Assembly (NCBI GenBank): GCA_024654575.1
Contig: JANLHG010000005.1
Span: 1,260 to 65,259 of the forward strand
Origin: Patescibacteria group bacterium
GTDB taxonomy: Bacteria > Patescibacteriota > Minisyncoccia > Phycocordibacterales > PALSA-1337
Direction of reading: 5' to 3'
Length of the DNA: 64,000 nucleotides
Shown: positions 2,693-59,888 of the stretch, piece after piece
Layout of the letters: every line of letters begins with the position of its first letter
Position numbering within the stretch: position 1 is the stretch's first letter
Translations under genes and position numbers: made by a program
Notes under the pieces: model-generated
What the model was told of the DNA's origin: nothing
The model's database searches: none
Seen by the model: the letters and a program-made list of their open reading frames with translations, nothing else

Positions 2693-3985
2693 TTATAAAT
2701 AAGAAAGTGGATTAAGATACGCTTTTTGAGTTGCCACCGGAATACGTATGTTTTTGCAATTTATACTATTAACCAATGGTGACACTTGTATACCTTGAGT
2801 CGCGTAAACACTAAAGTGCAAATGCGCTCCAGAAGGTCCTGGTGGAAGTACGTAGCCACTATAACCACTGTAAGCGATAATATCACCTGTTTTTACTTCT
2901 TGCCCCGCACTGACTAATTGAGATGAAAGATGTGCATACACCGTTGAAAGACCATTGTTATGCTTAACAAGAATCCATCTACCATATGAATAACAGTTTG
3001 GTAATATACCAGTATCACCTATTTCTACAATTGTTCCAGATAAAACAGTTCTAACTGGAGTACCTGTAGTTGCTCGTAAATCAATACCATTATGCCCTTT
3101 TCCATTGTAAGCTTGAGGATTTTGAGTTGCGAAATTAGTGTTACCAAAATATTGAGTAATGTGAACATTATCAAGAGGCCATTGTAAAACTCCAGCTCCG
3201 GCTTTTGGTATACTATTAGGGTCAATTGTAATCCTTAATTCCTGTTCCAAATTAGCTAAATCATCTTCAAAAGCTTTCGCAAGGGCTTTCTTATTATCAA
3301 GTATTTTTTTATAATTAGCTTCTTGATTTTTTGTTTGAGCCAATAAGTCAGCTTTCTCTTTTTTTATATCTTCTACTGATTTTGTCTGTCCTTTAAGTTG
3401 ATTACTAAAGCTCAATAATTGAACTTTATTTTTTTCTGTTTTTATCTTATTTTGTTCAAGTTGAATTTTTGTATCTTCTAAGTCTTTTATGGTTTCCCTG
3501 ATAGTTGATTGGAAACGAGTTAATTTTTCTAATTCGTTCCAAAACTCCCCCAGATCTCCAAATTCAATAAGTGTCTCAATGAGCGATTTAGACTCCTCAA
3601 CATTTATTTTATAAAAAGTTTTACTTATAATTTTAATATCTTCTTCAATACGATTACTCTTATCTCCTATATCAAGTTTTAATTGCTCTATAACGATATT
3701 AGCTGTTTGTATCTTATTTTGCGTAATTTGAATATCTTTTGATAATTTCTTTCTAGTTATTTCTAATCCATCAACTGTACCCTTCAGAGTATTGGCTTGA
3801 TTTGATATTACATCAACTTGGTCTTGATACTGAGCAATTTCTTGTTTAAGTTGATTAAGTAAAACATTCTGCTCATCTATTTTTTGTCTGAGTTCTTCCG
3901 CTTTGTCGGCATAAACATTATTTCCAAAAAATAAAATAAATGCTAATAAAACTATAGTTAATATTTTCCATTTATGATAAAACAT
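2693..3985 (-). CDS. Coiled-coil murein DD-endopeptidase, M23 (LytM) family, EnvC-like
   Basis: Has an N-terminal signal/TM segment and a long coiled-coil (Q/E/K-rich heptads). The C-terminus carries the GHNGIDL and HLHFSVY (HxH) M23 metal-binding motifs. Confidence 0.85.
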   Translation of the reverse strand: MFYHKWKILTIVLLAFILFFGNNVYADKAEELRQKIDEQNVLLNQLKQEIAQYQDQVDVISNQANTLKGTVDGLEITRKKLSKDIQITQNKIQTANIVIEQLKLDIGDKSNRIEEDIKIISKTFYKINVEESKSLIETLIEFGDLGEFWNELEKLTRFQSTIRETIKDLEDTKIQLEQNKIKTEKNKVQLLSFSNQLKGQTKSVEDIKKEKADLLAQTKNQEANYKKILDNKKALAKAFEDDLANLEQELRITIDPNSIPKAGAGVLQWPLDNVHITQYFGNTNFATQNPQAYNGKGHNGIDLRATTGTPVRTVLSGTIVEIGDTGILPNCYSYGRWILVKHNNGLSTVYAHLSSQLVSAGQEVKTGDIIAYSGYSGYVLPPGPSGAHLHFSVYATQGIQVSPLVNSINCKNIRIPVATQKAYLNPLSYL

Positions 3986-5309
3986 GAATTGCTTTTGAAA
4001 TTCTTAAGATTACTTCTTCTTTTCCTAAAATATATATCAAAGAAAAAGGGTCTGGTGATTTATCTTTTCCCGATAGGGCATAGCGAACAGGCCAAAGAAC
4101 ACCCCCCTTCCCTTCTTTTTCGGCATAAGACATTATTTGATTTTTAATATCATCAACACTCCAATTCCCTATTTTATTTATAGAATCAATTACTTTTTCT
4201 AAGTGAATGACAGTTTTTTTAGAATCATTTTCATTCTTCCAAAATAATTTATCTTTTGTATATTCTGGTTCATTAAAAAAGTAATCCAACTCCCCCGCTT
4301 CTATCATTGTGTCTATGTCAGAATAAACATTGATACGGTCGAAAATAATCATTAATAACTTTTCCAAATATTCATCTGATACAACATATTTTTTCTCTAT
4401 TCTTTTTTTAATTTCTTTAAATACTATTTTTTTGTCTAACTTTTTTAGATATTCTTTATTAATCCAATTAAGTTTTTCAATATTAAAAATCGCTCCACTT
4501 TTTTGCACTTTAGCTAGATCAAATTGTGCAATAAGTTCGTCTATACTAAATATTTCTTTTGTCGTTCCGGGGTTCCATCCGAGAAAGGCAAGATAATTAA
4601 TAATTGCTTCGGGGAGATAACCCTTTTCTCTGTAATCATCAACACTCACTGCACCGTGCCTACCTGAAAGTTTAGATTTATCAGGAGCAAGAATAAGTGG
4701 TAAATGAGCATAAATAGGCGTCGGAGCACCTATCGCTTGTTGTATAAGAATTTGTCTGGGAGTGTTAGAAATGCCATCTTCTCCACGAATAATATGAGTA
4801 ATACCCATTTCAAAATCATCAATAACAACTGCTAAATGATAAATTGGTTCCTCCAAAGATTTTGCAATAACAAAATCACCAAGCTCTGTTGTATCAAACT
4901 CTATGTCACCTCGGATTAAATCTGTAAATTTTATTTTTTTATTTGAATTTTTAAAACGAATAACCTCATTTCTTTTCCCTTCCTCTACTTCTTCCTTTGA
5001 AAAATAAGCTTTGTCTTCATCAATGAGTTTCTTCAAATATGTTTTATATATATCATTACGTTGTGATTGCCAAAATGGACCATCATCATAACTAATCCCC
5101 AACCATTCTAAACAATCAAGCATATTTTTTTCATACTCCTTCTTTGATCGTTCTTTATCTGTATCTTCAAATCTAAAAACTATTTTACCTTTATTTTGTT
5201 TTGTAAAAAGGTAGTTAAAAAGAAATGTTCTTGCCCGTCCAATATGCAAAAAACCGGTAGGACTAGGTGGAAATCTGGTAATGACTTTCATACCAGTATA
5301 ATAACACAA
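3972..5309 (-). CDS. gltX: Glutamyl-tRNA synthetase (class I aaRS)
   Basis: RFPPSPTGFLHIGRARTFLFNY contains the HIGH motif in GluRS context. KLSGRHGA is a KMSKS-like motif. Length is about 440 aa. The true start is probably the MKVITRF Met. Confidence 0.9.
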   Translation of the reverse strand: MCYYTGMKVITRFPPSPTGFLHIGRARTFLFNYLFTKQNKGKIVFRFEDTDKERSKKEYEKNMLDCLEWLGISYDDGPFWQSQRNDIYKTYLKKLIDEDKAYFSKEEVEEGKRNEVIRFKNSNKKIKFTDLIRGDIEFDTTELGDFVIAKSLEEPIYHLAVVIDDFEMGITHIIRGEDGISNTPRQILIQQAIGAPTPIYAHLPLILAPDKSKLSGRHGAVSVDDYREKGYLPEAIINYLAFLGWNPGTTKEIFSIDELIAQFDLAKVQKSGAIFNIEKLNWINKEYLKKLDKKIVFKEIKKRIEKKYVVSDEYLEKLLMIIFDRINVYSDIDTMIEAGELDYFFNEPEYTKDKLFWKNENDSKKTVIHLEKVIDSINKIGNWSVDDIKNQIMSYAEKEGKGGVLWPVRYALSGKDKSPDPFSLIYILGKEEVILRISKAIHVLS

Positions 5310-5312
5310 ATA

Positions 5313-5765
5313 CTAATCAATCGCTGTAATTTTGAGTTTGAATTTTACTGTTTTATCTTGCACTTGAACTGTAATTTCATGTTCACCCACTTCTTTTATT
5401 GGTTTATCTAATTTGATGAATTCTGGAGAAATGATAAGTCGAGTTTGTTTGGTAATCTCTGGAGCAATTTCGGCACTATGAATCCCAGCAAAAAGATGGC
5501 CTTTCTCATTGGCTTTTCCAGCCATTTCTATAACAATACCATTCATATCGTTAAGATTCTTCAAAAGCAAGTCTTCTTGAATTTTTTTCTCTATATCTTC
5601 CTTTGCTTTTTCTACTGAAACCCTTTTTACAGCCTTTTCTGTAGCGATTTCAGCAAAACCCTTAGGTATAAGAAGATTTAAAGCATATCCATCAGAGATA
5701 TCTTTAACATCATATTTTTTACCTACTTTAGGTGTGTCTTTTAGTAAAATTATTTTCATACACAA
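5313..5765 (-). CDS. rplI: 50S ribosomal protein L9
   Basis: MKIILLKDTPKVGKKYDVKDISDGYALNLLIPKGFAE matches the L9 N-domain consensus. Confidence 0.85.
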   Translation of the reverse strand: MCMKIILLKDTPKVGKKYDVKDISDGYALNLLIPKGFAEIATEKAVKRVSVEKAKEDIEKKIQEDLLLKNLNDMNGIVIEMAGKANEKGHLFAGIHSAEIAPEITKQTRLIISPEFIKLDKPIKEVGEHEITVQVQDKTVKFKLKITAID

Positions 5766-54717: not shown

Positions 54718-55440
54718 ATGGAAAAAGAAAATAATTTAATTACTATTCCGAGTGCAATTTTAATTGCTGGAATTATTATAGGAGGAGCTGTTATCTACAC
54801 CAAAGGAATGCCTGTAGAAAAAATAATATCGCAAAGTACATCTGCAATAAAAAGTTCTTCAATAAATATAGACCCTGTAACTGAGAACGACCATATTCGG
54901 GGAACACCTGATGCTCCAATTGTAATTGTGGAATTTTCAGATTTAGAATGTCCATTTTGTAAATCATTTCATTTGACGATGCAAAAAATTATGAATGAAT
55001 ATGGAAAAAGCGGAAAAGTCGCTTGGGTCTATAGACACTTCCCTCTTTCTATACATCCAAAAGCTCAAAAAGAAGCTTTGGCATCTGAATGTGCTTACGA
55101 ACAAGGTGGTAATGAAAAATTTTGGCAATATGTTGATAATATTTTTTCTATTACTCCATCAAACAATCAACTTGACCCTCTTCAATTACCGATAATCGCA
55201 AAAAACATAGGACTTGATGTTGAAAAATTTAATATCTGTTTTAATAGTGAAAAGTATGATGAAAAAATCCAAAAAAATTATCAAGATGGTATTCGTGTGG
55301 GTATTGGTTCTATTCCAGAAACAGGCACACCATACAGCGTGGTAATAGATAAAAAAGGTAACAAAGTACCTATCAACGGCGCTCAACCTTATGAATCGGT
55401 CAAGCAATTAATTGACGCGATACTAGCAGGTAGTAATTAA
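54718..55440 (+). CDS. DsbA-like thioredoxin-fold thiol:disulfide oxidoreductase, membrane-anchored
   Basis: An N-terminal TM segment is followed by FSDLECPFCKSFH, which carries the CPFC active site. Confidence 0.75.
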   Translation: MEKENNLITIPSAILIAGIIIGGAVIYTKGMPVEKIISQSTSAIKSSSINIDPVTENDHIRGTPDAPIVIVEFSDLECPFCKSFHLTMQKIMNEYGKSGKVAWVYRHFPLSIHPKAQKEALASECAYEQGGNEKFWQYVDNIFSITPSNNQLDPLQLPIIAKNIGLDVEKFNICFNSEKYDEKIQKNYQDGIRVGIGSIPETGTPYSVVIDKKGNKVPINGAQPYESVKQLIDAILAGSN

Positions 55441-55475
55441 ACAATTAAAATATTTAAAAAAATAAAATTTTGTTC

Positions 55476-55509
55476 CACTAACTTGCAACGACCGCACATA
55501 GTTAGTGGA
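55476..55509. repeat. 34-bp palindromic repeat, copy A: CCACTAACT-TGCAACGACCGCACAT-AGTTAGTGG
   Basis: It contains the stop codon of the enclosed gene. A second copy lies at 56066-56098. Confidence 0.65.
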
Positions 55510-56065
55510 GACCAAAATATTCTTTAAGTTTTTTGTCATTCTCAATTGTGTCAGCTATTATATATAATATATCTTTTCCAATTTTAAAATCAGCTTTTAA
55601 AAGAGTAATAAAATCTTCACAATCATAAGGAAAAACCCAAACACTGCGTTGAAGACATTTAAATCCTATTGAAATAAGAGTAAGCCTCAATTTATCTCTC
55701 AACACTCTTCTATATTCTTTAATATCAAAAATAACAATTCGCCATTTTTTGTCCCACTTCTTTGGAACTACGATAGAATCTTTAGTTTGTAAATGATAAA
55801 GTTTTTCTTTCCCTTTATCTGTGAGTGTAATAAAATCATTTTCATATTTAAGAAAACCCTGTTTTATTAAACGGGATCTTGAACGCAATAATATTTCTTT
55901 ATCTCTTCTGTTTGGTTTATATCCAAACATTTTTAACACCTGTAACGCATTTGGTGCAAGAAGTGCAACACTCAAAAGGCCAGCCATCGCGACACTTTGC
56001 AAGACAACTTTCTGAATATTACTTCTTCTAGTCCGTTTTTTAGATTCTTTTTCCAAATTCCCCAT
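55502..56065 (-). CDS. Hypothetical protein: basic N-terminus, wHTH-like middle, C-terminal domain with Cas2-like sequence pattern
   Basis: The wHTH-like region reads LIKQGFLKYENDFITLTDKGKEKL. The C-terminal WRIVIFDIKEYRRVLRDKLRLTLISIGFKCLQRSVWVFPYD resembles the Cas2 N-terminal pattern (vvv.YDi…RR.kv.k.L..yG.rvQ.SVf). The start codon abuts palindrome copy B and the stop lies inside copy A. Confidence 0.5.
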   Translation of the reverse strand: MGNLEKESKKRTRRSNIQKVVLQSVAMAGLLSVALLAPNALQVLKMFGYKPNRRDKEILLRSRSRLIKQGFLKYENDFITLTDKGKEKLYHLQTKDSIVVPKKWDKKWRIVIFDIKEYRRVLRDKLRLTLISIGFKCLQRSVWVFPYDCEDFITLLKADFKIGKDILYIIADTIENDKKLKEYFGLH

Positions 56066-56098
56066 CCACTAACTATACACGACCGCATGTAGTTAGTG
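56066..56098. repeat. 34-bp palindromic repeat, copy B: CCACTAACT-ATACACGACCGCATGT-AGTTAGTG
   Basis: The arms are identical to copy A and the ACGACCGCA core is conserved. Confidence 0.65.
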
Positions 56099-56149
56099 TA
56101 TGTGGATAAGATTAAAAAAAGTGAAAACAAATATATAAAAAATAAAAAG

Positions 56150-56185
56150 ATAAAAGGTTCGCGTGTGATACGCGAACCTTTTTGA
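56150..56185 (-). terminator. Rho-independent terminator of the upstream minus-strand membrane-protein gene
   Basis: ggttcgcgt-gtgata-cgcgaacc with a T-run on the minus strand. Confidence 0.6.
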
Positions 56186-56199
56186 TTCAAAAAGAACGA

Positions 56200-56838
56200 C
56201 TAGATTACTTCCGATTTTTCTGCGCGGATTATTTTGTCCGCTTCTTCAAACATTGGTCCGAAGGGAGCAATAGGAAGGTCAAAGTTCTCGCGTAAAATTT
56301 TTGAGATAACTCTTAAATTAACACGCAAGGAGTCAGCCAGATCCTCCATATCTTCAATTTCCCGTCGTCTAATTACTAGAACATTTGCTTGAAGAAGATT
56401 ACTAATCTTAACCGTCATACTCTCACGCCCTGGTGGTAATTCAGCAATTCCACGATTAATACCACACTGTTGCAGTAAGTAATCCAGCCGATTCACTACA
56501 TTGGTGAATTGAATCAATAAGCCAATATTAATTAGACTGGCTATTAAACCAAAAAGGAGAGATATTGAAATGATTATGATACCAACAGAAATGATCCACA
56601 TGAAACCGTTTTCGCTGATGAGACCATAAAAAAACAAATATATCGAAAGTGTCACGACAGCAGAAAAACCAACTGAGATAAAAAGAGATATTTCCGCTAT
56701 GTGCATCGCCTTAATGTTCTCATTTAGATCATCCTTTTGTCCTTTCCATCTCCATGAGGAAAAAAAAACTGGAAGGACTGGTAATACATCTGCCACCAGA
56801 AGTTTATCCACTCGAATACCACGTATGTTAATGTTCAT
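56200..56838 (-). CDS. Hypothetical membrane protein (TM helices plus cytoplasmic C-domain)
   Basis: Two or three TM helices. It has a strong RBS (gaggaagg) and a GC-rich structured leader upstream. Confidence 0.5.
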   Translation of the reverse strand: MNINIRGIRVDKLLVADVLPVLPVFFSSWRWKGQKDDLNENIKAMHIAEISLFISVGFSAVVTLSIYLFFYGLISENGFMWIISVGIIIISISLLFGLIASLINIGLLIQFTNVVNRLDYLLQQCGINRGIAELPPGRESMTVKISNLLQANVLVIRRREIEDMEDLADSLRVNLRVISKILRENFDLPIAPFGPMFEEADKIIRAEKSEVI

Positions 56839-56860
56839 TTTTACCTTCCTCTGTTCAGTT

Positions 56861-56935
56861 ACTTTCAGAGAATAATGGGGGTCGGTCCCATCGCAAAGCC
56901 GCTTCCTGGCAACTCCCGCCTTCCTTGACGAGGCG
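56861..56935 (-). promoter_or_regulatory. GC-rich structured 5' leader (candidate cis-regulatory RNA/riboswitch-like element) of the 56200-56838 gene
   Basis: A roughly 75-nt island of about 60% GC sits in an AT-rich spacer. It contains the cgcct…aggcg hairpin and gggggtcggtccc, and lies directly 5' of the SD. Confidence 0.35.
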
Positions 56936-56993
56936 ATACTTCATTATTTTAAAAAACTTTCCTGAACAATCCACTATTTAGTATAAATAACAA

Positions 56994-59888
56994 TTAAATA
57001 TTTGTCAATGATTTCAACTGACACCATTCACATTTTTTGTTGTTGCAGAAAGTGGTGATAATAGAACCAGAATTAACAGCATCAAAAAGAGATTTGATTT
57101 CTGTTTTGAGTTTTTCAATATCTGAATTTTCTACAGAAAGGGTTATGATCGGACATCTACCTTTTGAATCTGGAATTACAAAAACCAATGAAGGTATGAT
57201 TTTCTTATCTAGAAATCTTGAATCATTTTCAAGTAAAAGCCGATAAAATACCAACTGTCGAAAATAATCACCATTACTATTTTTTGTTTCTCCTTTTATT
57301 TCATTTTCAGACATCACCTGTTTCGTCTTATAATCAAAAACAAACACTTCTTTTCCATCGTCTACAACTGCATCAAGTTTACCGTGAAGAACAGCCTCTT
57401 CAAATATAGTTTCGCTCCATATTTCTGAAAAAATTGTTCCTTTTTGAGCAAAATGAGATTGTAATTCCTTTGCAATTATTGGAATATCTTCAAACAATTC
57501 TTTTTTGACCGTTTCTTTTTCAGATAATGAAAGTAAAGATTCTATAAAATAATTACTAACAGTCGTCTTCATAATCTTCTCAAGATCTTCAATATCTCTT
57601 TTTTTAGAATTCCATATCAACGATATTGCTTTATGCATAGAATTCCCTTTTTCAGCTAAAGGAGATGGAGCTTGAGGAATTTTTAAAATACTTTGATAAA
57701 GAAATTTACTCGGACAATCTAAAAAATGATTGAGAGCCGTAACAGAAAGTCCAGATTCTTGAAGAATTGATTTTGCATAATCTATAGTTTTTTTAGCAGA
57801 ATTATTTAATTGTCTATTTTTTATCAAAATATCTTTTTTTTCCATAATGCGAGGTAGATTAATTTTAGAAATATGTTTTGGGTCTAACTCGTCAATAAAC
57901 CTTAACGGAATAAGGGATTCTCCATGATCACTGGCTCCAAAAAGAATAACAACATGCGAACGAGCCCTCGTTAAAGCAACATAAAAAAGTCGCCGAACAT
58001 CTCTCACATCATTCATAACTCTTGTTTCTGGAAGCACAAAATAACTTCCCCAATTTTTACCAATCCATGATTCTTCGGTGACATAAGGAATAAAAACATA
58101 ATCAAATTCTAATCCCTTACTAGCATGAGCTGTCATAACTCTAATCGGTAAATCTGGAGTTCCAACACTAATTTTGACACTTTTATTTTCAGCAGAAACT
58201 TTATAAGCAATAAGATAGTCCATAAGTTTTTTAGGGTCTTGTATGTTTCCTTGATGAATTATATTTTCAGACAAAGTCGTAATCCCTCGCCATACTTCCA
58301 CATAAGATGGTTCTTTAGCGATAATCTTATTCAGACCTGTTAACTCTGCTAAATTTATAATAAACTCTAGCGGATTATCATCAGTAATTTCTTTTTTAAT
58401 AGTTTTAAGAATTGGAATTTTGTTATCAAGTTTAATATCTTCGGTAGATTTTAGTAACTTTATAATTGATACTGAATCATCAAAGGACAAGCCCCACAAA
58501 CCCGAGACTAAAGTTTTAGCTAACAAATCAGTTTTTGTTGGGTCACAAATAAATTCAATTAAATCAAAAAATAAAATCCCAACAGGATGATTAAAAATAT
58601 CTATACTTCTTTCAGACGACACTGAAATATTATTCGCTTCACATAAATGTAAAATCCTTTCAAGGTCACGATTGGTTTTTGTAATAACTGCCGTGTTGAT
58701 ATTTTTTTTAAATGTTAATTTCTTAAGTTCATCAACTAGATATTTTTCAATTGTTTCCGTATCTTCCGCTGAGACAACATCAACAGGTTTTAAAAATTCA
58801 TCACTTTTAGCAGAAAGTTTTACTCTCAAATTTTGATGTTCTCCATCAATATAATTATTTTCAATCATTGAAAAACTAGCATCTAATATACTCTGATGAG
58901 AACGATAATTTTCTTCAAGACGAATAATTTTCATTTCTTTCCACGTATTTTCAAATTTCAAAAAATTATCCACTGAAGCTCCTTGAAAACGATAAATTGC
59001 CTGTTTCTCATCACCTACTATAAATACATTTGGTACATCAAAAAAATCAGCCAGAAGTTTTATTAATTCATTTTGAGAATTATTAGTATCTTGATGTTCG
59101 TCAATTAACATATACAAAAACTTTTCCTGCAACATTCGCAAAAGAAGTTCATCATGTTTTAAGGCAATAACAAGCTCATATATAAGGTCATCAAAATCCA
59201 TAACTTTATCTACTCTTTTTTTATTTTCATAAGCTTTATAAATATCGGCAAAAATAAATGTCCGCTCACATTTCTCTATTTTTTTCTTTGATTCTGCCTT
59301 TAGTTCACCTTTACTTTTACCTCTAGTAGAATAAGAATCTTCACCGGCTTTTATTTTTTCTATTTCATCTTCCGCATGTTTACGAACCATATCCGGTGTA
59401 TAAGATTCTCGTTTTGAATCACTTATAGCACCAATTATTTTTTGAATATAAAAATCTGGATTACCAAATGGCCGTAAATCACTCATTTTATCACTTTTCA
59501 ATAAAGTTCTAATTATATTTTCCGCCTCAATATCTGTTAATTGTTTAAAACGATCTAAATGGGTAAAATGATCACGAAATTCATTAATGACAGAAGATGC
59601 AAACCCATGAAAAGTGTGGATTCTTACTTCGTTAGCTCTGGTTCCAATAATATCCCGAAGTTTCATTCTCATCGCTTTTACTCCCGCTTCAGTAAATGTC
59701 AGTGCTAAAATACCTGACGCTGGTGTATCAGTTTTTTGTAAAATGTTAGCAATACGCAGAGTGAGAATAGTTGTTTTGCCAGTACCAGGTCCAGCAATAA
59801 CCATCACTGGCCCTTCAATTGAATCGACAGCTTCTTTTTGTTTTTTATTAAGTCGCTTATATTGTTCTTCAAAGTTTTCAGAAGTCAT
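56994..59888 (-). CDS. UvrD/PcrA-family helicase fused to a C-terminal RecB-family (PD-D/ExK, Cas4-like) nuclease with a Cys cluster
   Basis: Walker A is VIAGPGTGKTT and helicase motifs follow. The C-terminal motifs are VFVFDYKT (D-x-K), QLVFY (QxxxY) and a …CNNKKCEWCQL cysteine cluster. Length is 964 aa. Confidence 0.8.
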   Translation of the reverse strand: MTSENFEEQYKRLNKKQKEAVDSIEGPVMVIAGPGTGKTTILTLRIANILQKTDTPASGILALTFTEAGVKAMRMKLRDIIGTRANEVRIHTFHGFASSVINEFRDHFTHLDRFKQLTDIEAENIIRTLLKSDKMSDLRPFGNPDFYIQKIIGAISDSKRESYTPDMVRKHAEDEIEKIKAGEDSYSTRGKSKGELKAESKKKIEKCERTFIFADIYKAYENKKRVDKVMDFDDLIYELVIALKHDELLLRMLQEKFLYMLIDEHQDTNNSQNELIKLLADFFDVPNVFIVGDEKQAIYRFQGASVDNFLKFENTWKEMKIIRLEENYRSHQSILDASFSMIENNYIDGEHQNLRVKLSAKSDEFLKPVDVVSAEDTETIEKYLVDELKKLTFKKNINTAVITKTNRDLERILHLCEANNISVSSERSIDIFNHPVGILFFDLIEFICDPTKTDLLAKTLVSGLWGLSFDDSVSIIKLLKSTEDIKLDNKIPILKTIKKEITDDNPLEFIINLAELTGLNKIIAKEPSYVEVWRGITTLSENIIHQGNIQDPKKLMDYLIAYKVSAENKSVKISVGTPDLPIRVMTAHASKGLEFDYVFIPYVTEESWIGKNWGSYFVLPETRVMNDVRDVRRLFYVALTRARSHVVILFGASDHGESLIPLRFIDELDPKHISKINLPRIMEKKDILIKNRQLNNSAKKTIDYAKSILQESGLSVTALNHFLDCPSKFLYQSILKIPQAPSPLAEKGNSMHKAISLIWNSKKRDIEDLEKIMKTTVSNYFIESLLSLSEKETVKKELFEDIPIIAKELQSHFAQKGTIFSEIWSETIFEEAVLHGKLDAVVDDGKEVFVFDYKTKQVMSENEIKGETKNSNGDYFRQLVFYRLLLENDSRFLDKKIIPSLVFVIPDSKGRCPIITLSVENSDIEKLKTEIKSLFDAVNSGSIITTFCNNKKCEWCQLKSLTNI

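Follow-up and report, generated by a model that had tools for sequence, protein, structure and literature searches.

A probable autoregulatory module of Patescibacteria: a truncated PaaX-type protein gene bracketed by two copies of a palindrome

The tiny genomes of Patescibacteria encode few proteins recognisable as regulators, and experimental genetics is almost lacking for these bacteria. In a 64,000-nt stretch of DNA from one of these organisms (the whole stretch is called the window, 64 kb, below), a short gene is bracketed by two copies of a long palindrome, and the question is what these copies are for: they could be recombination sites that delimit a cassette, or operator sites that overlap the start and the stop of a regulator gene. 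The original prediction, made from the letters of the window, had put forward both geometries and had proposed a solo Cas2-like nuclease or regulator on a miniature mobile cassette.

The two copies follow the pattern CCACTAACT-N16-AGTTAGTGG and are found at 55475-55508 and 56066-56099. Copy A is TCCACTAACTTGCAACGACCGCACATAGTTAGTGGA (55474-55509) and copy B is TCCACTAACTATACACGACCGCATGTAGTTAGTG (56065-56098); their start-to-start distance is 591 bp, and they have a common core, ACGACCGC, in identical orientation. Thus, the near-identical palindromes with a shared core, predicted to lie 590 bp apart, are indeed present, and so is the 187-aa minus-strand ORF between them (55502..56065), whose ATG (56065-56063) adjoins copy B and whose TAA stop (55504-55502) falls inside copy A. 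With up to three mismatches allowed, the pattern occurs exactly twice in the 64 kb, where 100 shuffles give an expectation of 0.00. When the full window was scanned at the class level, copies A and B came up plus one match at chance level, and no further site above chance. The features of the locus are:

55474 to 55509, no strand: downstream site D (copy A), TCCACTAACT-N16-AGTTAGTGGA; proposed auxiliary operator or roadblock
55502 to 56065, minus strand: gene of the mini-PaaX-type protein, 187 aa (domain searches, homologue alignment, AF2 model, Foldseek)
55505 to 55762, minus strand: region encoding the Cas2-like PaaX_M domain, residues ~102-187 (Pfam, AF2, Foldseek, covariation)
55781 to 55981, minus strand: region encoding the predicted winged helix-turn-helix (wHTH), residues ~29-95 (AF2 model, covariation)
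56063 to 56102, minus strand: upstream site U (copy B), gene-strand sequence CATACACTAACTACATGCGGTCGTGTATAGTTAGTGGATG; proposed autoregulatory operator over the whole promoter
56072 to 56077, minus strand: -10-like box TATAGT, at -12..-7, 6 nt before the ATG
56079 to 56086, no strand: core of site U, ACGACCGC on the plus strand and GCGGTCGT on the gene strand; CGnnCG class
56152 to 56182, minus strand: intrinsic terminator of the upstream 212-aa membrane-protein gene (terminator scan)

Judging from the homologue alignment, the ATG at 56065-56063 is the true start, because M1, G2 and E5 are invariant in 28 homologues. Relative to this ATG, site U spans -37 to +3 with its dyad between 56082 and 56083. 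Site D has its dyad between 55491 and 55492 and its core ACGACCGC at 55488-55495; it overlaps the TAA stop, sits between the mini-PaaX gene and a convergent gene for a DsbA-like thioredoxin, and possesses the arms and the core of U without the -10 box. The other neighbours in the window encode the membrane protein and a UvrD-like helicase. The terminator at 56152..56182 shows where the module ends upstream, and that the regulator gene needs a promoter of its own.

Both patterns that had been noticed in the protein, one wHTH-like and one Cas2-like, were borne out by the domain searches and the structural model. Residues 102-177 match the Pfam family PF20803 (PaaX_M) with 69.9 bits against a cut-off of 24 (E 2e-19), and the same domain is present in all 120 homologues among the matches listed. 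Pfam describes PF20803 as the "PaaX protein central Cas2-like domain", so that Cas2/VapD and PaaX, posed at first as alternatives for the C-terminal half, coincide in it. The protein consists of a basic N-terminal helix, a wHTH (~29-95) with its recognition helix at 53-68, and a PaaX_M/Cas2-like ferredoxin-fold domain (~102-187). The AF2 model gives a wHTH plus a beta-alpha-beta-beta-alpha-beta domain; it was computed for the protein alone, as neither dimer nor DNA complex, and is of moderate quality (mean pLDDT 68, with the N-terminal part of the wHTH below 50). Foldseek ranked E. coli PaaX (8a39) first (186 columns, E 1.3e-3, probability 1.0, a match that is moderate as the model is), followed by structures of Rv0674, Cas2 and VapD, and the two-domain fold of E. 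coli-type PaaX, wHTH plus Cas2-like, is therefore found in the 187-aa protein. A sequence search of the PDB gave a weak match to Rv0674 only.

Neither of the two names that these matches suggest applies as such. The protein is not a genuine Cas2 or a solo CRISPR adaptation protein: the Cas2 models PF09827 (15.2 vs 23.8) and TIGR01573 (22.1 vs 24.5) both remain below their cut-offs, the PADLOC Cas2 match (E 1.7e-5) covers residues 108-144 only, no tandem array of the CRISPR type is present in the 64-kb window, as had been foreseen, and there is no conserved cas neighbour in the 78 related loci. Nor is it a genuine PaaX, since the PaaX equivalog model TIGR02277 scores 37.3 bits against the required 264.55, with only profile positions 38-139 of 279 matched; the PaaX_C ligand domain gives no Pfam match at E up to 1, the protein ending at residue 187, right after the Cas2-like domain; and no paa catabolic genes adjoin the gene. 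On the strength of its sequence matches, the protein is best described as a truncated PaaX-like regulator that joins a winged helix to PaaX_M and is devoid of the ligand domain. The Cas2-like domain retains the invariant acidic residues D105, D114, E117, E150 and E175, so many being unusual for a pure DNA-binding surface.

The family to which the protein belongs is large: clustering at 50% identity gives no fewer than 395 clusters (E 1e-30 or better). It occurs in Patescibacteria and is often represented by several diverged paralogues per genome. A symmetric upstream site (at least 13 of 20 positions) precedes 71 of 75 family genes and 27 of 241 other genes. The downstream site matches the upstream site of its own locus (at least 26 of 40 positions) in 65 of 75 loci, compared to 41 of 368 cross-locus pairs. 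Bracketing by two sites is thus, at the level of sequence, a family-wide rule, with a palindrome specific to each locus and arms private to each paralogue. The upstream dyad lies at exactly -17 in about 38 related loci; in 480 kb of such loci, 95 of 110 strict sites fall within 200 bp of the ends of the family gene, and about one or two plausible extra sites were found. The palindrome is therefore not confined to this place as an ordinary operator pair, an outcome that the original prediction had considered: the bracketing holds across the family and solo sites exist elsewhere.

The symmetry of the sites is not uniform, amounting to 0.9-1.0 at 2-4 bp from the dyad and 0.86-1.0 at 11-18 bp, and only 0.56-0.79 at 5-10 bp. 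A comparison of the window with two homologous loci, L001 and L004, gives the same picture, with arms and core kept and an inner spacer that drifts. Many sites are nevertheless perfect palindromes even through this inner spacer, whose sequence varies, and the symmetry there exceeds what simple contact-based selection requires.

Where transcription probably begins is suggested by the family as well. A TATAAT match (at least 5 of 6) stands exactly 6 nt before the ATG in 39 of 79 family genes and in 27 of 296 other ORFs, and this spacing implies a leaderless mRNA, which would start at the A of the ATG. Leaderless transcription would also explain the missing Shine-Dalgarno sequence; the original prediction had seen no spacer for one, and an SD-like motif is indeed present in only seven of the 79 family genes. 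These results are further evidence that this group of organisms commonly transcribes genes without a leader, from a -10 box 6 nt ahead of the ATG, and they affect how start codons are called. As the upstream copy overlaps the TATAAT-like box, autorepression by promoter occlusion is proposed.

Taken as a whole, the locus is probably a self-contained site-gene-site autoregulatory module, and of the two geometries considered at the outset the one with operator sites over start and stop is favoured. In this model, the truncated PaaX-type protein would bind its 36-40-bp palindrome, probably as a dimer by analogy with PaaX. The outer arm, 11-18 bp from the dyad and different between paralogues, would be read by the recognition helix of the wHTH. 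Within the Cas2-like domain, the beta-hairpin and first helix would read the core, 2-4 bp from the dyad (CGnnCG here, CTATAG elsewhere). Because site U (-37 to +3) covers the leaderless promoter, protein bound there is proposed to exclude RNA polymerase, so that the gene would repress itself. The downstream copy may be bound by the same protein, most likely as an auxiliary operator, acting by looping or by a raised local concentration, and/or as a roadblock.

The division of labour between the two domains finds support in protein-DNA covariation. Arm similarity follows wHTH similarity (partial Mantel r 0.30, reached by 0 of 500 permutations), and offsets 17, 14 and 16 pair with residues 57, 61 and 54, respectively (p 1e-11 to 4e-7). 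On the predicted recognition helix, R54, E57 and R61 share a single face; they covary with bases of the outer arm that stand 14, 16 and 17 nt from the dyad. In turn, residues 120, 124, 137 and 140 covary with bases of the core at distances of 2, 4 and 5 nt, with offset 2 pairing with residue 140 (p 4.5e-11) and offset 4 with residue 120 (p 1e-10). The core class (CTATAG or CGnnCG) covaries with residues 120 and 140 across about 16-17 independent switches, and 57 of 63 loci are concordant. The strongest single rule is Asp140 with CTATAG and Asn, Lys, His or Arg140 with CGnnCG; the protein of the window has R140, within the motif LQRSVW, and the CGnnCG core. In a prospective test on 11 new loci, a residue other than Asp went with CGnnCG in six of six cases and Asp with CTATAG in three of five. 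The exceptions to the residue-140 rule are L009, L061, L073, L078, L085 and L107. The Cas2-like domain thus appears to read the centre of the site, which would be the first indication of a Cas2-fold domain reading DNA bases.

The role of the downstream copy leaves room for a variant of this model. The downstream dyad lies 10-110 nt past the stop codon, and the gene beyond it is convergent in 38 loci and co-directional in 37, so that an operator function for the next gene fails as a general rule. The position so close to the stop, whatever the orientation of the next gene, would suit a protein-dependent roadblock or insulator, by which the module walls off neighbouring transcription and its own transcript ends at the bound site; site D might thereby shield the gene from convergent transcription. 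T-runs after the downstream sites are absent across the family, neither palindrome was called an intrinsic terminator by the terminator scan, and the gene of the window is followed by no other hairpin called as terminator-like, all of which is compatible with termination at a bound protein. Close to half of the downstream sites, as well as several of the solo ones, stand between convergent genes without a promoter to regulate, a point against the main model.

Solo sites, of which about 11 distinct ones were found in related metagenome contigs, bear on this variant in both directions. Convergent 3' ends flank L088, L095 and L097, and L086 adjoins a stop codon, as a roadblock would; L087, L092, L098 and L101, however, resemble ordinary operators in that they precede gene starts by 60-170 nt. 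Roadblock and looping are also compatible with each other and not mutually exclusive, and the roadblock refines the autoregulatory model instead of replacing it. That a roadblock or insulator, and not a looping operator, is the main function of the downstream copy and of those solo copies that lie between convergent genes is, on balance, rather unlikely. Related genomes carry the same type of site, standing by itself, in further intergenic regions, so that the protein probably controls a small regulon. As to a wider regulon in the source genome, the window holds no site beyond U and D.

If the palindromes acted as RNA, they would be hairpins of the 5' and 3' UTRs, either as targets of a VapD/Cas2-like RNA-binding protein or RNase, or as stabilising or terminating stem-loops. 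Both copies do fold stably as RNA (-14 to -17 kcal/mol, z -3 to -5), and RNases occur among Cas2 and VapD relatives. However, the upstream site would not be transcribed, as it either reaches no further than the ATG or precedes the -10 box; pairing is weakest beside the would-be loop (offsets 5-10), whereas the core sequence is conserved; mismatches in the downstream sites have no G-U bias (GT 45, AC 40); the orientation relative to the gene is not fixed; and there is no T-tract. A known RNA family was also rejected, as Rfam gave no match at E up to 1. This explanation is highly improbable.

The cassette, the other geometry considered at the outset, has more in its favour, and is still improbable. 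It holds that the unit is, or was, mobile or excisable, that the palindromes are sites of recombination or cleavage, that the protein is a nuclease or recombination factor acting at the dyad, and that the solo sites are scars of excision or empty targets. When the window is compared with L001 and L004, nucleotide homology covers U, the gene and D and breaks just outside, where the adjoining genes differ (these variable neighbours have no informative Pfam matches). The flanking sites are mostly direct repeats (15 direct, three inverted), solo sites exist, and the inner sequence of the solo site L086 is of the D type or hybrid. L004 carries a third, inverted copy of the site plus a half-site remnant, and in L072 the downstream site is duplicated. 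The Cas2-like domain keeps the Asp of beta1 and the other invariant acidic residues. A catalytic reading of the same data would make this domain not just a block for dimerisation but a base-reading head on the dyad, possibly with metal-dependent catalysis, at which site-gene-site units are nicked, cleaved or recombined; excision would then occur between direct copies and inversion between inverted ones, with the solo sites as targets or scars. We regard such catalysis, too, as a long shot. If true, it would amount to a previously unknown site-specific DNA-processing element on a Cas2 fold and to an evolutionary link between Cas2 nucleases and PaaX repressors.

Against the cassette stands the stability of the locus: when it was compared in relatives, as had been suggested, the gene was still between the UvrD-like helicase and DsbA genes at 84% identity. 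No pair of an occupied and an empty version of one locus was found, and the paralogues within a genome are old, 47-82% identical and never near-identical, on which ground recent transposition was rejected. Conserved neighbours are lacking, be it an integrase, a transposase or any other gene (the most widely shared neighbour family is found in five of 78 loci), so a conserved partner or cargo gene was dismissed for the 78 loci, and the protein bears no signature of an HUH, tyrosine or serine recombinase. Viral contigs are almost devoid of the family, with one distant relative only among 2.9 million; PHROG profiles gave no match better than E 0.09, and a phage or mobile-element origin was likewise rejected. 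Finally, a promoter within U and the fixed dyad at -17 are more simply explained by regulation. The miniature mobile cassette of the original prediction is thus unsupported, and the autoregulatory module remains the preferred reading.

Members of this family are now annotated as "hypothetical" or, probably wrongly, as "CRISPR-associated endonuclease Cas2" in some database entries, although the family may be among the main transcription-factor families of Patescibacteria. With Cas2 and VapD the protein has in common the ferredoxin-like fold and a sequence likeness over beta1-alpha1 that takes in the Asp of beta1 and also the Q.SVW/F strand. It differs from Cas2 in scoring under all curated cut-offs and in being fused to a wHTH, without a CRISPR array in the window or a cas gene as a conserved neighbour in the 78 loci. 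Our literature searches found no work treating PaaX together with Cas2, returned only an unrelated HEPN paper for "Cas2-like" plus "winged helix", and, for Patescibacteria/CPR, no mention of PaaX among the best-ranked matches.

Among systems with bracketed genes, the closest are the REPtrons, in which genes for REP-associated tyrosine transposases (RAYTs) are flanked by their own REP palindromes; they also occur as several paralogues, each with its own palindrome family, and REP palindromes have further intergenic copies, tens to hundreds, often at 3' ends. Gene-specific palindromes that bracket the gene, several paralogues and extra intergenic sites are all found here as well. Unlike a RAYT, the present protein is a wHTH plus PaaX_M and not an HUH/Y1 transposase, with no invariant His-x-His in its conserved columns; compared with REPs, the sites seem few in the DNA scanned (two in 64 kb, and those one or two plausible extra in the related loci, 480 kb in all), and the promoter forms part of the upstream copy. 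Integron gene cassettes (attC) differ by the same scarcity, two sites in 64 kb, by the arms private to each paralogue, and by the lack of a recombinase as a conserved neighbour. A repressor with a site at the promoter and a second one a few hundred bp away, joined by DNA looping, is known from lac O1/O2/O3, gal OE/OI and deo, and the genes of the replication terminator proteins Tus and RTP adjoin their own sites. In contrast to these repressors and terminator proteins, the second site here lies just past the stop codon of the regulator itself across the whole family, a consistent design rule.

The nearest relative remains PaaX, the phenylacetyl-CoA-responsive repressor of E. coli and Pseudomonas. 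As here, the winged helix of PaaX (PDB 8a39, 3l09) is N-terminal, and the Cas2-like PaaX_M domain, with the WDxKW motif, comes after it. The present protein is 187 aa long, compared to ~310 for PaaX, has no PaaX_C ligand domain, keeps the FDIxE segment of the Cas2 type and has no paa genes nearby; its gene is bracketed by two sites, and its family, which is restricted to Patescibacteria, is multi-copy, each paralogue having its own arm specificity. A role of the Cas2-like domain in reading DNA is not established for PaaX itself; a 2022 review states that no DNA complex was available for it (PMC9493321). The site bound by E. coli PaaX, TGATTC-N27-GAATCA (39 bp), has widely spaced arms, and the protein sterically blocks its own promoter (PMC9493321). 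The recognition model proposed here, with the outer arm read by the winged helix and the core by the Cas2-like domain, also predicts how PaaX-type repressors may span such long operators.

The gene for the 187-aa protein on the minus strand is bracketed by two palindromes of 34-36 bp each, which lie 591 bp apart, at the following positions:

55474-55509: palindrome TCCACTAACTTGCAACGACCGCACATAGTTAGTGGA (copy A, the downstream site), overlapping the TAA stop
55502-56065, minus strand: 187-aa ORF, with its ATG adjoining copy B and its TAA stop within copy A
56065-56098: palindrome TCCACTAACTATACACGACCGCATGTAGTTAGTG (copy B, the upstream site), abutting the ATG
56077-56072, minus strand: -10-like box TATAGT, in copy B
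56152-56182: strong terminator of the upstream neighbour gene, from a terminator scan of the window

The two copies have in common an off-centre core, ACGACCGC, in the same orientation, and a search of the 64 kb for the pattern CCACTAACT-N16-AGTTAGTGG, allowing three mismatches at most, gave exactly two matches, versus 0.00 expected from shuffles, which confirms the bracketing proposed in the original prediction. A scan of the 64-kb window for any site of this class returned only copies A and B and one chance-level match. The ATG is a genuine start, as 28 homologues all share M1, G2, and E5.

The Pfam model PF20803 PaaX_M ("PaaX protein central Cas2-like domain") matches the 187-aa protein with 69.9 bits (cut-off 24) and CRISPR_Cas2 with 15.2 (cut-off 23.8). 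In NCBIfam, the match to PaaX is partial (37 bits versus 264.55 needed) and that to cas2 falls just under the cut-off, while the PADLOC Cas2 models cover residues 108-144 only. An AlphaFold2 model of the monomer, built from a 28-sequence alignment and of moderate confidence (mean pLDDT 68, about 80 in the C-terminal domain), starts with a long basic helix at the N-terminus, continues with a winged helix (helices 36-46 and 53-68, wing strands 72-81), and ends in a second domain with a beta-alpha-beta-beta-alpha-beta order. Foldseek against the PDB placed E. coli PaaX (8a39) at the top, followed by M. tuberculosis Rv0674 and then by many Cas2 chains and VapD. Both likenesses anticipated for the protein therefore stand and only the choice between them falls away, because the PaaX_M domain is itself Cas2-like: the protein is a truncated PaaX-type protein with a Cas2-like second domain, without the C-terminal ligand domain.

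The family of such mini-PaaX-type proteins has many members and a restricted range: 2447 relatives came from a word-indexed search, all organism names among the matches listed being Patescibacteria/Paceibacterota or plain "bacterium", and a profile search yielded, at E 1e-30 or better, 395 clusters (50% identity). The label "CRISPR-associated endonuclease Cas2" that some members carry is probably wrong. No description of the family or of its site architecture was found in the searchable literature.

In two close relatives (loci L001 and L004, 84% identity), the same palindrome stands directly before the ATG and again 20-45 nt past the stop. The comparison was extended to 80 loci from GTDB genomes (45-63% identity), drawn from metagenome-assembled genomes, and all the evidence is comparative. 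Nearly all of these loci have a long palindrome on both sides of the gene. Upstream symmetry of at least 13/20 pairs was found for 71 of 75 family genes versus 27 of 241 other genes of the same loci, whose ORF calls are crude, and a downstream copy matched its own upstream site at 26/40 positions or more in 65/75 loci, versus 41/368 cross-locus pairings. Under a strict site definition, 480 kb contained 110 sites, of which 95 are no more than 200 bp from an end of the family gene. The outer arms vary by locus (CACTAACT, TACATTAAC, GGAATATAAT, and others), and the central blocks fall into the core classes GCTATAGC (40), GCGACCGC (19), ACGACCGT (12), CCTATAGG (7), and ACGATCGT (5). At least 13 genomes among the 80 loci have two to five paralogues, 47-82% identical within one genome, each with its own arms. 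Relative to the upstream copy, the downstream one is direct in 15 cases, inverted in 3, and undecidable in 26; the neighbour on the downstream side is transcribed convergently in 38 loci and co-directionally in 37.

Some loci carry additional elements. L004 has a third full palindrome, inverted, at 2786-2820, about 180 bp upstream of the promoter-proximal site, and near it, at about 2860-2880, a half-site remnant, CAACTATACGACCGT, within a 380-bp intergenic region. L072 has two identical downstream copies, GTACCAAACTGATGCGGTCGCACAGGTTTGGTAC, 39 and 131 nt past the stop and 92 bp apart, and L035 has two upstream copies. In L028, a second downstream palindrome about 190-220 nt past the stop combines different arms (CGCAGATAAC...GTTATCTGCG) with a family-type core (ACGTTCGT), and may be a site for another paralogue. 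After the downstream site of L018 (about 3590-3620), ATGGGGGAGTTGGAGGAGGG... encodes a 9-codon ORF, MGELEEGYN*, which resembles the invariant family N-terminus MGxLExE and could be left over from a duplication of the gene start or follow from the ATGGG in the palindrome. In L027, tandem repeats of roughly 45-50 bp (GTCGTATGCGATACGCTACAGGATATGTTATACGATACTT...) follow the downstream palindrome at about 3670-3830.

Alignment of positions -60 to +9 across the family loci revealed two layouts. The window and other loci, about 38 in all, have the dyad exactly at -17 and a palindrome that starts at -37 and reaches the ATG(GG), with a TATAAT-like box (-12 to -7) as its right inner part. The other loci have a more perfect palindrome at -30 to -80 and a separate TATAAT 6 nt before the ATG. 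TATAAT is matched at 5/6 positions or better, exactly 6 nt ahead of the ATG, in 39/79 family genes versus 27/296 other ORFs, and SD-like motifs precede 7/79 family genes. This placement of the -10 box is the geometry expected if the mRNA is leaderless and begins with the A of the ATG, in which case the upstream palindrome would span the whole promoter and stay untranscribed. Among the 296 control ORFs (L001-L084), with starts called crudely at the first Met, only 27 have an SD-like motif; the leaderless layout may be widespread in these Paceibacteria genomes, beyond the family genes.

If present as RNA, the palindromes are predicted to form stable hairpins. Over 63 loci, symmetry reaches 0.9-1.0 at offsets of 2-4 bp from the dyad and 0.86-1.0 at offsets of 11-18 bp, and drops to 0.56-0.79 in between, at 5-10 bp. 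The two conserved blocks, separated by about one helical turn, resemble a protein footprint and not a stem, which would be tightest beside its loop. Mismatches in the downstream sites have no G-U bias (GT 45, AC 40), no T-tracts were found after these sites, the terminator scan of the window called neither palindrome, and Rfam gave no match to them. The evidence favours palindromes that act at the DNA level rather than as RNA hairpins.

The best-supported reading of these comparisons is an autoregulated leaderless mini-PaaX gene, whose product would bind the bipartite palindrome at its own promoter and the second copy just past its own stop codon. For the second copy, the candidate roles are those of an auxiliary operator or looping partner and of a roadblock or insulator. 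A recombination or nuclease role of the site-gene-site module is improbable in our judgement; it would account for the bias toward direct repeats, the third copy and half-site remnant of L004, the duplicated downstream site of L072, and the Cas2-like domain's many invariant acidic residues. It would also suit a discrete block of homology, given that nucleotide similarity among the window, L001, and L004 spans the upstream site, gene, and downstream site and breaks just outside. In all three, the module is kept in the same interval between the UvrD-like helicase and DsbA genes; the genes between it and these flanking genes differ and are uninformative:

Window: variable genes flanking the module, 56200-56994 and 54718-55440
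L001: variable genes flanking the module, 2420-2945 and 3640-5336
L004: variable genes flanking the module, 1660-2945 and 3640-4339

This UvrD/PD-(D/E)XK helicase-DsbA interval is a hot spot of gene content, with different small uncharacterised genes in the three relatives. Within-genome paralogue identities gave no indication that the gene transposed recently, the most widely shared neighbouring gene family occurs in no more than 5 of 78 loci, and 2.9 million viral contigs contained one distant relative only. The sole transposase seen beside a module is a Transposase_mut gene (L106, 1-115), about 390 bp upstream of a family member.

Solo sites bear on both readings. The pattern CACTAACT-N5-CG-NN-CG-N5-AGTTAGTG was found in 18 metagenome contigs, three of which have an adjacent family gene (L085, L094, L096), and about 11 distinct loci have a well-formed site without a nearby family gene. 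Some of the latter lie 60-170 nt upstream of genes (for a DUF456 membrane protein, a cation-efflux transporter, and an NYN-domain protein), others lie between convergent genes (L088, L095, L097), and one is directly past the stop of a Mur ligase gene (L086, 2802-2833). Such sites are consistent with a small regulon, and they are also the expected leftover of excision or deletion between two direct copies. The inner sequence of the L086 site, GCGGTCGTGGGG, matches the downstream-site type of L004; the stretch common to L086 and L001/L004 is the site alone, and similarity to the window extends about 20 nt into the AT-rich flank of copy A.

Protein and site were also compared across loci. Arm similarity correlates with winged-helix similarity with r 0.33 and with that of the Cas2-like domain with r 0.15; the partial Mantel r for arms and winged helix, 0.30, was reached by 0/500 permutations. 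The winged helix is the least conserved part (mean identity 38%) and the Cas2-like domain the most conserved (63%). Associations between residue columns and bases in 71 loci split cleanly by domain. Arm offsets of 17, 14, and 16 bp from the dyad pair with residues 57, 61, and 54 (p 1e-11 to 4e-7), which form one face of the predicted recognition helix, whereas core offsets 2, 4, and 5 pair with residues 140 (p 4.5e-11), 120 (p 1e-10), and 124, located in the beta2-beta3 turn and first helix of the Cas2-like domain. LQ-D-SVW goes with CTATAG in 32/35 cases, LQ-N/K/H/R-SVW with CGnnCG in 25/28, and LQ-E with CTG(T/G)(A/G)G. The LQ-E-SVW proteins of L054, L067, and L081, with cores ACTGGAGT, ACTGTAGT, or ACTGTGGT, neither CTATAG nor CGnnCG, constitute a third recognition class. 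The window protein combines R140 with the core CGGTCG, as the residue-140 rule predicts, and in a prospective test on 11 loci outside its derivation, the prediction of CGnnCG from a non-Asp residue held in 6/6 and that of CTATAG from Asp in 3/5.

This association is not a by-product of phylogeny. A similarity tree requires at least 17 changes of core class and at least 16 of residue class, and 57/63 loci are nevertheless concordant. Among pairs of at least 55% identity, core and residue differences coincide (Fisher p 7e-50). The inferred arrangement is a dimer whose two variable winged helices would contact the variable arms, with the conserved Cas2-like domains over the conserved core at the dyad. 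According to a 2022 review, there is no solved PaaX-DNA complex (PMC9493321). The proposed placement fits the known behaviour of PaaX: its binding site is TGATTC-N27-GAATCA, and by steric hindrance it represses its own promoter (PMC9493321).
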